DNA from: an uncultured Planctomycetia bacterium
Lineage (GTDB): Bacteria; Omnitrophota; Gorgyraeia; Tantalellales; Tantalellaceae
Direction: 5' to 3'
DNA: 64,000 bases
Assembly (NCBI GenBank): GCA_964409365.1
Contig: CAYPCX010000011.1
Span: 3,576-67,575 of the forward strand
Part shown: piece by piece, positions 21,001 to 27,000 of the stretch
Numbering within the stretch: position 1 is the stretch's first letter
How the letters are laid out: every line of letters starts with the position of its first letter
Made by a program: the position numbers

Positions 21001-24000
21001 AAATTCGTCGAAACTGCGTGAGCGTATGGAAAGAGGAGAATCCCTGCGGATGGAAAAAGATTATATGTATATTTACGGGAAGATAGACAAGAAAATGTAT
21101 TGGAGGAATTTTAAAAGGCTTGTAAAGTTAGGATTGTTCACCGGAAAAAGAAATTTTAAGATCACCCAACGTGGAAAAAGATTTATTCCCGGCTCCCCGA
21201 AGAAAAACCTTGCCTGGTGGATAGACGCTATGAGGAAAGGCGGTGTAAATCTGCGGAAAGATATCGTAAAAGAAGTGTTGGACGAAAGAATACTTTATGA
21301 CAAAGATAACAACGCCATAAGGATGGATCTTTTAAAAGATAATTACACAGACATCATGAATGTTCTTTTTGGCGAGATCAAAGAAGCGGTGATCGGAAAA
21401 GGCTGTCTAGGAAGCGCAACAGATACGGTGCTCGAAATCTTTGAATGTCTTGAACAGCAGAAAGAGGTCGGTCTTTGCAAAGACGTGATCGAGCGCGTAT
21501 CCATGATACCCATACCCGATCCCGGGAGCGAGTATGTACTTTCTTATCTGCAGGAGGTGTACAGAAAACTCGCAAGTTCCAGTTACGGGCGCACGTTCGC
21601 GTTTTATCTTCTGGTATTTTTTATGGAATACGGCAACAATATCCCGGAATCACAATGTCCGCTCGAAAAGACGATGTATCTATTACATGACGCGGGCAGT
21701 GAAAATTTCTATTATTTCCTGCGGAGGATCGGCGCTTTTTATTTTCGGGATAATTCCGGAGAAGTTAACGTCAAAGTGCATCATCCCTTGAGGAACCGCA
21801 CCAGGTGTTCGAATCCTCACGGTCATGATATAGACGGTGTGCTCCGGGACTCCATCCATAACCATCTCGGCGTGTACGTGCTGGGGCAGTTGGAAAGGAT
21901 GCTTGAATATTTTCATGACGGGGATCTTGCGGTATTGGGAGATGAGGATTATGAAGTAGACGCGTTCAAAGATGACGAGTTCCGGAGCGCTGACGCGGTG
22001 TTCCCCGATAAAGTGCTGGAGATGCGGAAGGATTTCGACGTTCCGGGTTCGGAATGGCACCTGATAATGAGCAGGGTGTTCGAATATCTGGAAAGTGGGC
22101 TCGACGGGCAGATAAAGGTCGATGGCCAGACCAAATGGGAAAAGTTAAGGAACGTATCCGATGAAGACCTCCAGAAAATATACGATGAGATAAATAAAGA
22201 AATGGGATGGAAAAAAAGCGGAGTGATCTGGTTGGGCGTGGACAGGAAGGAACATCATGATTTTTCAGGTTATATATATGCTTATCGCGAGCTTTGGAAA
22301 AGGTACAGGAGGACAGCCAGCGTGGACGACCTGGTGGAGGCCCTGTCGAAGTTATGTTATCACACTTATGGTATCGAACACACCGTTAAAGGCGGCAAAG
22401 ATATTTATGAACTGTTGAAAGCCGCCGATAGTATCACGGGGCTTAAGGAGGTTTTGCTGGCGAAGAAGCGGGTGAAAGGGGAGATATTCAGAGATGATCT
22501 CGAATACGATCCTGTAGGAGTCATGCATGAATTCAGGAAGGATTTCGGTCGTGACGATAGCGGTAACCTTGAAGGCGGCGGATGGATAAGGGATGAAATG
22601 CTGAATCTTTACCAGGCGGAGCATCTCCTGTCGCTGATAGGAGATCGTTTCATAGAGCGCGCCAACGCGAAATTTACTGACGTCGACTGGTCGAACATGA
22701 CCGATGTCCTGCGGTATCTTGAACTTCTTGCCGAGATAAGTCATACCGACGGCCTGATGCCGGAATCGTTCCTTGACCATGTCAGGACGCTTCTTTCCGT
22801 CAAGGACCTGGATGTTTCCACGGCCAGGGATATTGTGCGTTTCATGGAACAGGAGTGTATACAGATAGAGAATTACATTATCTACAATACCGAGAACTAT
22901 GTTAAGGCGATACTGGATGCCAAGGGTATTACCGATGAAGAGGAGAGGGCCAGGGAGTTTAACGACAGGATCACCGCGATAATGGAGCAGGATAAGGTCT
23001 ATAAGACCATCCGGGGTTTTGTAAGGCGTATTGGCTCGTTCCTTGAAGAAAGCGAAGGGAAATTCCAGGTCAGAAATACCGGGAAAACACCCAATGACGA
23101 TCACGTCCTTTTCGGCGAGAGCGTGGATAAAGGCGTTCTGGAAAAAGCCGGAGCTAACGGCAGGTATCGTCTTTCAGCTAAAGGCATAGAGCTTGTCAGG
23201 ATGTCCGGCAGGGGGTTTCCGGTACCCGAAGGCGCGATCATCCCCGCGGATACTTCTTCCGGGGCAGTAGAAAAAAAGAGCCGGAAAGCTCTTATGGCGC
23301 TTGAGGAACATTTCAAGAAGGTCGAGGATCTGGAAGAAGGTAAACAATGGATGAAAGGCATGGGTTTCGGTTCTAAAGACAACCCTCTCATCGTTTCCGT
23401 AAGGTCCGGGGCCTATTTCGTGATGCACGGGCAATTGCCTTCGGTGGTCAATGTGGGGCTTTGCAGGGAGACCGTTCCCGGATTTATTGAACAGCTGAAA
23501 AAACGCGGTCTGGATGATGAAGAAGCCCGGTGGACGGCATGGGATTCCTACCGCAGGTTCCTGCAAAGTTACGGGGAGGAAGTCCTGGGTATAAGCAGGG
23601 ATATCTTTGAGCATGAAGTGGCGGGTATAGTAAAAAGGGTTGGCGTAAGCAGCGTAAAGGATGTTACTCCCGGAAAAATGGAGGGCTTGGCCCGCAAATT
23701 TGAAGACATTATAGTGCAGGCAAGGGGAGAATCGGCTTTACCGCAAACACCGGAAGAACAGTTCAAACGCTGCGTCAGGGCGGTAAAAGATTCCTGGAAA
23801 AGATCGGAAAAATACCGGGAGAATGTGGGGGTACAGGGCGAGTGGCCCGGTACGGCCGTTATTATCCAGCGCATGGTTTTCGGGAATATCCGCAGGGACT
23901 CGGGTACCGGCGTCGTCAAAACGCGTATGGTAGACGTGAGAAAAGAGGGCTTGGCGGGCGATTTCCTGCTGTGCGGACAGGGCGATGACATAGCCCAGCA

Positions 24001-27000
24001 CAGAGTCCTCGCGAAAGACCTTAAGCGAATAGAGGATATCCCAGAAGATACTCCCTGGAAGAAGGTCCTCGCGGATATCTGTTACGCTGCCGATCTGGGG
24101 CGGGTAAGACTTAGCGAAGTTGAGTTTACGATGGAGTTGTCAGAACCGTATCTTCTCCAGGTAAGGGACGAGTTCATAGGAAGGCGAGTGTCGGATTATC
24201 TGTGCGTGCTTCCCGATATTGACCTGTTGGCCTCCCGCGACCGGGTCCTGCCGGCGTCGGAAGGAGCGTACAGGGGCAAGGTTTACGTTATCCACGGCAG
24301 GGAAGCGGATATGGGAGAAATCGACCGGTTGTACGGGGATGCCCGCAAGGCTGGATGTGACGGCGTGATCGTAGTAGGCGATGATCTGGAACCCGGACAG
24401 ATGGCGAAGCTTGTCGTCAAGGGAAAGGATAACAGGCTCAAAGTCGGTGGGGTGGTGACCCGCCGCGGGAGCAGGCTTTCACACGCTGCCGCTACCGCGA
24501 GGATCCACCGGATCCCGGCGATCGTCAACGTTGAAGATATGGGATTTAAAGATGATTCCGTCGGAACATTCACTATAAGAGACAAACGCGTACAGGATGG
24601 AGATATCCTGTCCATTTCTGGTACGACGGGTATGATATGCGAAGGATTATTGCCCATCGATGCCCGCGAGTTCCTGAACGACGATATAAAGCCTGCCATC
24701 AATTTCACCTATTTCGTGGAACACCTGGAAAGAAGGGGGCAGAAACTTACCGCGATACACCAGTTGCTCAACGCGGTCAAGGAGGATAAAGACCTGCAGA
24801 AAGTAGCGGGACACCTGCGGCATATCATGAATATCCACAGGGAGAATCTCAAGGTAACGGCACCGTATATCCTGGAGAGCATCGATAAGGCGCTGGAGCG
24901 GGGTGTGGGTGACGTTAATGAATTAAAACAGTTACTCCAGGATGGTCTGAAAAGGGGAGATGCCGGAAGGTTTAATGTGGGTGTCACAGATGAGATGAGA
25001 GAAACGATAACGCAAGTCCTTTCAAGCAGGGAATTCCTTGAAAGATTCAGGCTGGGTCCGCGGGATATACGCAATATTTCAATTATAGAAGAAAGCGCCG
25101 AGAGTTTTCAGGGAAGGGTAGCCGTCAATCTGGAACTCGAGACGCGGGAAGGACCTCTTGATGTCCGGGTGGCCTTTTATAAGCCGGGGTATGATCTTGA
25201 CCCGAATCAGGTCTCCGATTCCGGGACGATAGCCTCACGCCTTTTGGAGTATTATGAAGCGGGTGTTCTGGAAGACCATAAAGACCACCTGAAGGTAGGA
25301 GATGTAGCGATTTCTCCGGGAATGGTGACCGGCGCGGTCTATGAAGCGGAAGGGGACTATCGTTTGTCAGTCGCTGTTTTGTCCCGGAAGCTGGACGAAC
25401 TGGCCCGGGAGCATGATCTTACATATGAGAATATGGCAGGGGCTATTGCCGAGATAGGCGCGGAGAACATGGAAAAGGCCTATCGACGTTTTCATGCGAT
25501 GGATGATAGTTTCGCCTTTGACAGGATGTGTTACATGGTCCTGCCAAAAGGGGCTCCTTATGAAGCCGTGAAGGTGCGTTTGAGGAAAAAACACCCGGAT
25601 ATAAAAGGGACCGTACAGGAAGCGCTTGCCGGAGGAGAGATCGCCGGCATGAAGATATCTAACGGCAAGAGCGAAAATATCCGGAAAGACACGATAAAGC
25701 TCCTTTTAAGGGTATATGACAACCGTCCTGATGTTTATAACACTTTGGCAAGGGTATTCGACCTTAAGCATCGTAAAGGCATGAGCATTAGAGAGATGAA
25801 AGAAGAACTTGCCGGGATAACCGGAGGTAAAGGCGATCTCAATGATGAACAGAGGGTTCTTCTAAGGGACCTATTGGGCATTACACGATATGACGATCTG
25901 GCTGAGGATATCCAAAGAAAGTTTGACAGGCTCGGGGACCTTAAGAACTTCCCGATGGATATAAAACTGTACGACCTGATCATTACGCAAAAGGGGGATG
26001 AGGATATCGTCCGAGCGCTCAGCTGGGGAGCTTATATGCGCAGAAGCCTCGAGAACGAGGTCCTGGCATACATGAACAAGGATCTGGGTTTGCCTTATAG
26101 TGAGATCTTTGAAGCTCTGGGGGAATTGTACGGTGAAGGGGATGTCCACTCTTTTATCGAGAAGGCGCTTGCGTTTGAAACCTTTACATCAGATGGAGTC
26201 CCGAGAACCCCACTGGGCCATGAATTGAAAAAGTTCGCGGAATCGAAGGGATGGATAACGGCAGAGGGACCGGTCAATCCCGGTGTTATATTGCCATTAA
26301 AGCGCTGGATAGAACGGCGCCCCTGGCTGGCCGAGGGTATTCTTTTCGCGGGTACGGTGGCGTTAGGATGTTTCCTTTTTGGTTCCGCGAATTGGCAGAT
26401 GGTTTCCTGCATAAGCGCCGGGGCGACGCTTACGGCGCTTATGCTGCTTTTCGCCGACTGGACCGCCGAGAAAGGTATGGGGCTCCATGAATATTCCCTC
26501 AAGGTCGCGCCGTGGCTGGAGGAATTGCTGTTCTTCCTTGTCCCGATGGTGATAGGGCATTACACGTTCGGTTTGGGAAGCCCGGGCGCCGCTCTTATCA
26601 TGGCGGTTTCCAGGCTGGTGTTCTTTGTTCTGCATAAAGGAGCCCGTCCTCACGCGCCGCCGATAACATATATTGTCCCCCTCGTCGTCGCTCTTGTCGG
26701 CGGCTTGTTGCCTTTTGTTCAGTTCATTCCCTGGTTCTTGCCGATAGCGGCTGTTTCCCCGCTCATGTTTATCGCTGACATGACCGTCGTAGCCATGGCC
26801 GTTCACCTGATGTCCAATATTTTCGCGTTCTATTCAAGATTATCTCCCGCGACCCTGGACGAAAGCTCCGAGATCAGCGAACGGGAGTTCCAGGAAGCGG
26901 TAGAGGAACTGAAAAGCGGAAGCAATAAAGAGAAGATCGCCGCGACGGAACAGCTTGGTCTTTCGGGGCGTCCTGAGGCGATACAGCATCTTGTAAGGGC

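Follow-up and report, generated by a model that had tools for sequence, protein, structure and literature searches.

An intact PPDK-type ATP-grasp domain joined to a swiveling phospho-histidine domain lies within ORF2 (aa ~5641-6165), a giant multi-domain membrane protein of 8,861 aa from an Omnitrophota bacterium, and this module is derived specifically from PPDK and is not PEPS- or RPH-like. Since the pyruvate/PEP barrel is absent and a kinase-like domain comes next, the target is probably other than pyruvate, i.e., the module probably phosphorylates or regulates something else. ORF2 occupies positions 6182-32767 on the forward (+) strand, as do all features given below, of the window, by which we mean the whole 64,000-nucleotide stretch of DNA that was analyzed. 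Its Pfam matches comprise HD, HEAT, a cytidine-deaminase-type domain, PPDK_N and PEP-utilizers, and it aligns collinearly with four other giants of Omnitrophota, MBD3426391.1 (P0121), P0123, P0124 and P0126. The neighboring genes are found on ENA, JGI and Logan contigs.

The original prediction placed a PEP-utilizing-type ATP-grasp and swivel-His module inside ORF2 at 23130-24650, and Pfam, TIGR01828, a phmmer search of the PDB and Foldseek all agree on its nature and place, but its extent was drawn too narrowly, with homology running from nt 22610 and the His domain ending at ~nt 24676. The ATP-grasp nucleotide-binding domain spans 23102..24175 (aa 5641-5998; recognized by profile, PDB, model and Foldseek), and the linker and swiveling phospho-histidine domain span 24176..24676 (aa 5999-6165). 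Pfam matched both PEP-utilizers (PF00391, 5e-12) and PPDK_N (2.5e-6) to the module, far above chance, and NCBIfam TIGR01828 matched with an E value of 1.5e-67 and 228.3 bits, a score below its curated cut-off of 843 bits and covering only positions 13-335 of the 865 in the profile. In the PDB, phmmer aligned residues 9-510 of C. symbiosum PPDK to the module (E 3.5e-46), with residues 443-510 falling on the His domain. The AF2 model of the region (pLDDT 81) is PPDK-like: the top 16 Foldseek matches were all PPDK chains (1e-20 to 1e-27), and the His domain matched the NMR structure of the PPDK His domain, 2fm4, with a TMt of 0.81. Each sequence string quoted in the original prediction occurs once in ORF2, where it was said to be, i.e., GANGRYRL (aa 5657-5664, nt 23150-23173), GFPVPEGAIIP (aa 5678-5688, nt 23213-23245), QRMVFGN (aa 5896-5902, nt 23867-23887) and the swivel-domain loop GVVTRRGSRLSHAAATARIHRIPAIVNVEDMG (aa 6090-6121, nt 24449-24544). 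Of the broader PPDK/PEPS/RPH-like family assignment, only the PPDK part stood (228 bits, Foldseek 1e-26): the PEP synthase profile TIGR01418 has no full-length match in ORF2, touching the His loop only (E 0.006), and the fold match to RPH is much weaker (Foldseek 4e-5, TMq 0.09, vs 1e-26 for PPDK).

PPDK (C. symbiosum, 1kbl/1dik; maize, 1vbg), the best match in both sequence and fold, has the ATP-grasp and swiveling His in the same order, and its nucleotide, Mg and phosphate ligands and its His are common to ORF2. The equivalents of K22, R92, G101, R134, R135, Q240, SGTG, Q277, E323, Q335 and R337 are all kept, and the differences from PPDK are D321 to E, E271 to D and, at position -2 from the His, T453 to Leu. 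The predicted catalytic residue, His6101 (codon 24482..24484, within the loop RGSRLSHAA), is invariant in 33 barrel-less relatives, 87 canonical relatives and P0121. The Thr at -2 is present in all 33 barrel-less relatives and in 64 of the 87 canonical ones, with Val or Ala in 22 canonical PPDKs; ORF2 and P0121 share the Leu. These two proteins retain every ATP, Mg and phosphate ligand and the His, and are identical at 27 of 30 functional positions against a background identity of ~52%. With every nucleotide-binding and catalytic residue retained, the module is predicted to be catalytically competent.

Unlike PPDK, the ORF2 module has no C-terminal barrel, carries an extra N-terminal helical pre-domain and is built into a membrane protein. 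PF02896 (the PEP/pyruvate TIM barrel) was absent from ORF1, ORF2 and ORF3 by Pfam, neither tblastn nor HMM searches matched a TIM barrel in the six frames of the 64 kb window, and the domain in the barrel position is kinase-like, not (beta/alpha)8; profiles, six-frame search and fold of the next domain thus all uphold the earlier claim that no barrel follows. Beyond a low-confidence helical linker (24677..24988, aa 6166-6269; pLDDT 48-63 in model 1), this protein-kinase-like-fold domain occupies 24989..26263 (aa 6270-6694), where structure comparison showed a bilobal kinase-like fold and Foldseek returned nothing significant (best E 0.025). Reading alignment A3 by eye, we found K6464, the candidate beta3 Lys, to be invariant and a candidate catalytic Asp to be present in ORF2 and replaced by Thr in P0121, while the candidate Asn position of the catalytic-loop D-x4-N is Asp and no member has a DFG Asp. 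The domain is common to other Omnitrophota giants, many of them without the PPDK module, and therefore does not need the module. A ~300-aa insert of other giants was considered as a second kinase, a motif-level guess that PDB and NCBIfam sequence searches did not support.

The two duplicated TM cassettes described around the module are real. TM cassette 1 (20348..20959, aa 4723-4926) shows ~6 hydrophobic helices as hydropathy peaks, and TM cassette 2 (26270..26872, aa 6697-6897), recognized by hydropathy and by its likeness to cassette 1, is 55% identical to it across 204 residues. A soluble stretch of ~1,800 aa, K/R-rich at both ends, separates the cassettes and holds the module; the K/R-rich flank after cassette 1 (6 of 20 residues) suggests a cytoplasmic exit, and from hydropathy and charge counts the whole inter-cassette stretch is probably cytoplasmic. 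Pfam gave no support for the cassettes being CPBP/Rce1-like, and their weak ankyrin-repeat matches, from a profile search against the PDB, were regarded as spurious. Immediately after cassette 1 lies an upstream conserved region (20960..22609, aa 4927-5476; 38% identity to P0121). It contains ENFYYFLRRI (nt 21701-21730) and DSIHNHLG (nt 21848-21871), both near-invariant, and sequence searches of Pfam, NCBIfam and the PDB matched nothing in it apart from a weak, borderline winged-helix (MarR) match at aa ~4963-5019 (E 0.0024). The helical pre-domain follows (22610..23101, aa 5477-5640) and is all-helical in the AF2 model.

By sequence comparison, the module is sister to a family of free-standing PPDK-like proteins of ~1,390 aa, likewise barrel-less. 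The module grouped with 33 barrel-less PPDK-like proteins in 200 of 200 NJ bootstraps, and positions 705-1387 of an HMM built from 30 family members matched ORF2 aa 5477-6164 with 277 bits. Members of this family (~1,350-1,430 aa; e.g., P0015, P0044 and P0066) are annotated as "hypothetical" or "pyruvate, orthophosphate dikinase," and have in common with ORF2 the ~165-aa pre-domain, the grasp and His domains, the D321E and E271D signatures, the motifs WTAWD.YRRFLQS and GTAVI.QRMV.GN, and the lack of a TIM barrel. Unlike ORF2, they have a ~700-aa N-terminal region, and both HMM and hhalign match only from the pre-domain on; hhalign of the upstream region against the family N-terminus aligned the pre-domain only, at 18% probability. 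In addition, the family stops at the His domain and retains T-S-H, whereas ORF2 runs on into the kinase-like domain and has Leu at the Thr position. P0121 preserves the order of cassette, upstream region, module and kinase-like domain (42% identity over ~1,900 aa), and neither single-sequence queries nor queries with the ORF2 and P0121 alignment found a relative of this ~1,900-aa block in GTDB genomes or JGI metagenomes. For the module and its flank, word-index protein searches returned PPDKs and nothing else; for the downstream domain they came back empty, missing even the window's own protein. The giant relatives were found by a full HMMER scan. Both the sister relation to the barrel-less family and the conservation of the block with MBD3426391.1 are newly found here.

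The closest characterized analog of the ORF2 module comes from M. tuberculosis: VadK (Rv1127c), a histidine (di)kinase that is itself a truncated PPDK, was shown by experiment to phosphorylate its own catalytic His422 with ATP and Mg (EMBO Rep 2026, PMC13400623), a precedent for a shortened PPDK keeping this activity. Like the ORF2 module, VadK (NCBIfam NF004531) consists of PPDK-derived ATP-binding and His domains with no PEP/pyruvate domain; unlike the embedded ORF2 module, it is a free-standing actinobacterial protein of ~490 aa. NF004531 matched ORF2 with 135.6 bits over profile positions 16-298 of 534, below its cut-off of 456 bits. Since the module clusters with a barrel-less clade other than VadK, its barrel loss was probably independent.

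By analogy with these enzymes, we consider it reasonably likely that this PPDK-derived grasp and His unit, with its barrel lost, autophosphorylates, and that its phosphate is passed to, or its phosphorylation state controls, a flanking domain. The TIM barrel would have been lost before, or upon, building into the Omnitrophota giant membrane protein. As in PPDK and VadK, the grasp domain would bind Mg-ATP, His6101 would attack the beta-phosphate with release of AMP and formation of pyrophosphoryl-His, and Pi or water would resolve this to phospho-His. The His domain would then swing off and, there being no pyruvate site, deliver its phosphoryl group to an acceptor held by a flanking conserved domain, or phosphorylation would switch the neighboring domains. 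The prime candidate partner would be the kinase-like domain directly downstream, and the second the motif-rich upstream region. The block kept in P0121 speaks for functional coupling. Counted against this reading are the fact that P0121 is the sole homolog with the module in the same context, which leaves the evidence for selection and coupling thin, the Leu at -2, the many giants that have the kinase-like domain and no PPDK module, and the lack of a significant Foldseek match for that domain. A bolder version, which we regard as rather improbable, has the His domain docking on the kinase-like domain in the barrel's stead, with AMP-forming chemistry phosphorylating a kinase-type substrate or the giant itself at the membrane; if true, this would be an undescribed hybrid of two phosphotransfer superfamilies.

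An unlikely alternative to phosphotransfer within the giant is an RPH- or glucan-water-dikinase (GWD)-type dikinase for small molecules or polymers, which would work without the kinase-like domain on a diffusible substrate, such as a sugar, glycan or lipid head-group, bound at the pre-domain or the upstream region. Rifampin phosphotransferase (RPH-Lm, 5fbu/5hv1) resembles the module in its ATP-grasp and swivel His, non-PEP substrate domain and AMP-forming dikinase logic, and is a detectable structural relative by the Foldseek match given above; the pre-domain and upstream region are conserved only in module-bearing giants, and sugar-metabolism domains are abundant in Omnitrophota giants. However, the order of domains is unlike that of RPH and GWD, with RPH running grasp, rifampin-binding, His and ORF2 running, as PPDK does, grasp, His, X. 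Moreover, ORF2 has no rifampin-binding domain, Pfam, NCBIfam and PDB searches revealed neither a carbohydrate-binding domain nor any known substrate domain, and the upstream region has no recognizable fold.

We hold it to be very improbable that the module is a genuine PPDK interconverting pyruvate and PEP, with its PEP/pyruvate domain in trans or unrecognizably divergent. This is nonetheless how PPDK domains are read in a study of "Archaeovorin" giants, TM-rich multi-enzyme proteins like ORF2 and from its phylum, which lists PPDK_N as one of the 20 most frequent domains and has no discussion of a missing barrel, the clade or the kinase-like neighbor (West-Roberts et al. 2023, bioRxiv 10.1101/2023.11.21.568195). 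A GAPDH-like gene adjoining the sister family's gene in five of five loci also links that family to central carbon metabolism, and phosphoglucomutase domains are encoded by ORF3 and one neighboring gene. Against this, nothing resembling PF02896 turned up in the three giant ORFs or in the six frames of the window, the domain in the barrel position has a kinase-like fold, and the clade as a whole lacks the barrel. We know of no split PPDK that acts in trans. That the module is a catalytically silent relic, serving as a scaffold within a mosaic giant, fits its sporadic presence (1 of ~15 related giants examined), the Leu at -2 and the numerous highly divergent domains of Omnitrophota giants, but is highly doubtful given a PPDK-like model of high confidence and the retention of all ATP-grasp ligands and the His in two proteins only ~52% identical here.

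This module alone cannot interconvert pyruvate and PEP, and metabolic reconstructions scoring it as PPDK would err, which corrects the reading of PPDK domains in Omnitrophota giants at least for this one. Together with VadK and the ~1,390-aa family, it brings the cases in which PPDK has lost its barrel to three, this one probably independent, suggesting that the grasp and His pair is a reusable phosphorylation cassette. As an excisable unit of ~690 aa within a conserved block of ~1,900 aa, it allows function to be tested directly in one part of a giant that is otherwise hard to interpret.

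Using profile, PDB and structure searches of ORF2, a giant membrane protein encoded on this contig, we observe that every motif named in the original prediction at 23130-24650 (ORF2 aa 5650-6157) is present, in a single copy and in its place, and that Pfam, NCBIfam, PDB and AlphaFold2/Foldseek matches all agree on an ATP-grasp domain and a swivelling phospho-histidine (His) domain of the PEP-utilising enzyme type. For example, Pfam matches this module to PEP-utilizers (5e-12) and PPDK_N (2.5e-6), the NCBIfam model TIGR01828 (PPDK) matches ORF2 with 228 bits (E 1.5e-67), restricted to profile positions 13-335 of 865, and residues 9-510 of C. 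symbiosum PPDK align to the module at 3.5e-46 (phmmer vs PDB), a search in which nothing in the PDB matched beyond the His domain. Matches to the NCBIfam PEPS, EI and PigC/RedH models are confined to the His loop. Structure prediction returned a PPDK fold: the AlphaFold2 model of aa 5477-6676, built on a 44-row alignment, has a mean pLDDT of 81 (80-97 in the grasp and His domains) and places the predicted catalytic His at the start of a helix, like PPDK. The best Foldseek matches in the PDB were 16 PPDK chains (1e-20 to 1e-27), followed by rifampin phosphotransferase (RPH; 4e-5), an isolated PPDK His domain (TMt 0.81) and Enzyme I (1e-2). These profile, PDB and Foldseek matches therefore identify the module as PPDK-type, not PEPS- or RPH-type. 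The initial interpretation, i.e., a phosphotransfer module, was largely right, but its RPH-like label is better replaced by PPDK-derived and VadK-like, and an RPH- or GWD-like dikinase acting on a small molecule or glycan is improbable.

Our search also bears out the claim that no PEP/pyruvate-binding TIM barrel follows the module. The barrel domain PF02896 was not found in ORF1, ORF2 or ORF3, the giant ORFs of the window, and no barrel was present in any frame of the window using either tblastn with six PPDK C-termini (best E 0.011, a short stretch) or an HMM from 81 canonical C-termini (best E 0.33). The AlphaFold2 model shows no (beta/alpha)8 pattern in the secondary structure past the His domain. 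Pyruvate/PEP interconversion by the ORF2 module itself is thus untenable.

About one quarter of the best 120 database matches are proteins of 1,314-1,430 aa with PF01326 and PF00391 and without PF02896, and in this free-standing, barrel-less family the module is placed at the C-terminus. An HMM of 30 barrel-less members matched ORF2 aa 5477-6164 with 277 bits, taking in ~165-180 residues before the grasp domain, a stretch absent from canonical PPDK; the remaining N-terminal region of the family was not found in ORF2. In a distance-based NJ tree (513 columns, 121 sequences, sampled as best matches to ORF2, without a PEPS or RPH outgroup), ORF2 and 33 barrel-less proteins form one clade versus 87 canonical PPDKs (200/200 bootstraps), with ORF2 as sister to the 33. 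On five of five unrelated contigs (loci L009, L010, L011, L013 and L014, of P0066, P0089, P0107, P0015 and P0054, respectively), the free-standing ~1,390-aa gene directly adjoins a GAPDH-like gene (Gp_dh_N/C, 335-425 aa), with FBPase_3 nearby in L009 and glycogen phosphorylase in L011, which suggests that the barrel-less PPDK-like and GAPDH-like genes are an uncharacterised central-carbon enzyme pair. This neighbourhood in the sister family favors true PPDK activity with the barrel supplied in trans, whereas the lack of a barrel anywhere in the window and the kinase-like domain beside the module argue against it, and we consider it very unlikely.

We compared catalytic residues (PPDK numbering) with the 33 barrel-less and 87 canonical relatives and with one giant homologue, P0121 (MBD3426391.1). 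ORF2 retains equivalents of K22, R92, G101, R134, R135, Q240, S251, G252, T253, G254, T258, R259, Q277, G278, D280, E323, Q335, R337, S454, H455, A456 and R461. The predicted catalytic His, proposed earlier as the residue to follow across homologues, is retained in ORF2 as His6101 (the H455 equivalent by residue alignment; nt 24482-24484, + strand) and in P0121 (loop RGGKLSHAG). Two substitutions, D321 to E and E271 to D, are common to 33/33 barrel-less relatives. The T453 position is Leu in ORF2 and P0121, and since canonical PPDKs have V (15) and A (7) as well as T (64 of 87) there, aliphatic residues are tolerated. ORF2 and P0121 are ~52% identical over the module, yet 27 of 30 tabulated functional sites are identical; that the module is a silent relic is likewise very doubtful.

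When the 551 residues past the His domain were run with HMMER against all 1.84 billion representatives, 12 proteins were identified. The top one, P0121 (6,489 aa, Candidatus Omnitrophica), aligns collinearly with ORF2 aa 4794-6702 (41.8% identity). A word-index protein search missed all these giants, including P0121 (42% over 1,900 residues), and ORF2 itself was returned by no protein search, though the protein collection does contain its neighbours. Both proteins share one block order: TM cassette (44% identity), ~550-aa upstream region (38%), helical pre-domain (43%), grasp (52%), His domain (53%), a linker (38.5%) and a downstream domain (38%). The upstream region contains the near-invariant motifs ENFYYFLRRI, HPLR.RTRC, RDSIHNHLGVYVLG and FSGYIYAYREL, and has no known match other than a borderline MarR/AspA-type winged helix near its start (E 0.0024; aa ~4963-5019, window 21068-21238), a little past TM cassette 1. 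The PPDK module is absent from all other giants examined (P0122 to P0131, P0269, P0271 and P0272), most of which have the downstream domain and several the ORF2-type caps; no further relative of the block was found in GTDB genomes or JGI metagenomes. The ORF2 caps (N-terminal, aa 9-600, window 6206-7981; C-terminal, aa 8470-8861, window 31589-32764) are 26-43% identical to those of P0121, P0123, P0124, P0127 and P0130, Omnitrophota giants differing greatly in length and content, which defines one family with variable middles.

Modelled alone (aa 6270-6715, 19-row alignment), the downstream domain gave pLDDT 87.2 and pTM 0.85. Our case for a kinase-like fold is moderately strong, because Foldseek gave no significant match (best E 0.025), though kinases were prominent among the weak ones. 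G6311, R6312, K6464, R6466, G6616 and E6624 are invariant over 11-12 giants. A candidate catalytic-loop Asp, D6593, is Thr in P0121, and no DFG-type Asp is evident; these motifs were placed by eye in the sequence alignment. The domain may work as a kinase, be a pseudokinase or serve in binding. Within this domain, P0122-P0128 and P0131 contain a ~300-aa insert (e.g., P0122 aa 766-1070), missing from ORF2, P0121 and P0129, whose motifs GGDA.VY, VVK.L, DWDVK.ENYGYD and GSLDAGKF look kinase-like, a reading for which database support was not found.

As originally proposed, the module lies between two duplicated TM cassettes, 55% identical and with ~six hydrophobic helices each (cassette 1, aa 4723-4926, 20348-20959; cassette 2, aa 6697-6897, 26270-26872; both + strand), enclosing aa 4927-6696. 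K/R residues make up 6 of the 20 residues leaving cassette 1 and number four in the stretch entering cassette 2; hydropathy and charge thus fit a cytoplasmic inter-cassette stretch, a placement that would suit the module because ATP use needs the cytoplasm. The cassettes' invariant motif, APW.EE..FF...P ... FF..HEGARPHAPP..Y..PL, also occurs in P0121, P0124 and P0126, and in several copies in P0269. Pfam gave no support for a CPBP-like reading, and ankyrin-repeat matches in a profile search were weak and probably spurious. A few hundred residues upstream of cassette 1 is a cytidine/deoxycytidylate-deaminase-type zinc domain (aa 4413-4519, window 19418-19738; PF00383 3e-12, MafB19-like 3e-11).

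ORF1 (33-6002, at least 1,989 aa), ORF2 (6182-32767, 8,861 aa) and ORF3 (33018-42758, 3,246 aa) are adjacent on the + strand. Behind them come an IS200-type transposase, genes for mannan utilisation and housekeeping genes such as SmpB. Every one of the best named SmpB relatives is a 'Candidatus Omnitrophota bacterium' (63-79% identity), and identical neighbouring genes are present on metagenome contigs as long as 302 kb (ENA, JGI and Logan). The window therefore belongs to the chromosome of an uncultured member of the Omnitrophota, and its giant ORFs resemble the TM-rich multi-enzyme giant proteins described for this phylum. ORF1 contains a radical-SAM domain (aa 933-1071) and ORF3 phosphoglucomutase domains I and III (aa 1691-2159); with a stand-alone phosphoglucomutase gene just downstream (45375-47051), the same activity is encoded twice, within a giant and as a normal gene. 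The Y1 transposase gene (42915-43604) separates the giant-gene cluster from the mannan-utilisation genes (two GH113, CBM27 proteins, an ABC sugar transporter, ROK and PMI). Nearly all 2-kb bins show positive GC and AT skew, cumulative GC skew climbs monotonically over the whole window and the + strand carries almost every gene, the pattern expected of the leading strand of one replichore.

The observation as a whole is correct: ORF2 carries a PPDK-derived grasp and His unit with intact active-site residues and without the PEP barrel, and this unit sits in a conserved block with the kinase-like domain next to it. The closest characterised analogue in way of working is M. tuberculosis Rv1127c/VadK, a PPDK cut down to its ATP-binding and His domains; given ATP and Mg, VadK autophosphorylates on His422, and it regulates the methylcitrate cycle (Pascoe et al., EMBO Rep 2026, PMC13400623). 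ORF2 scores 135.6 bits on the NCBIfam model of VadK, below its cut-off of 456, and so falls outside the VadK family. By analogy, His6101 would probably autophosphorylate in a Mg-ATP-dependent, AMP-forming reaction, after which the phosphate would either pass to a conserved flanking domain that holds the acceptor or serve as a VadK-like regulatory switch. West-Roberts et al. (2023) place PPDK_N in the twenty most frequent Pfam domains of giant proteins in Omnitrophota, and PPDK-type domains in these giants were therefore already known; they were read there as interconverting pyruvate and PEP, which does not hold for the ORF2 module by itself. The module type as such is not new; what is novel is its setting in a giant membrane protein with a kinase-like partner, and its place in a distinct barrel-less clade.
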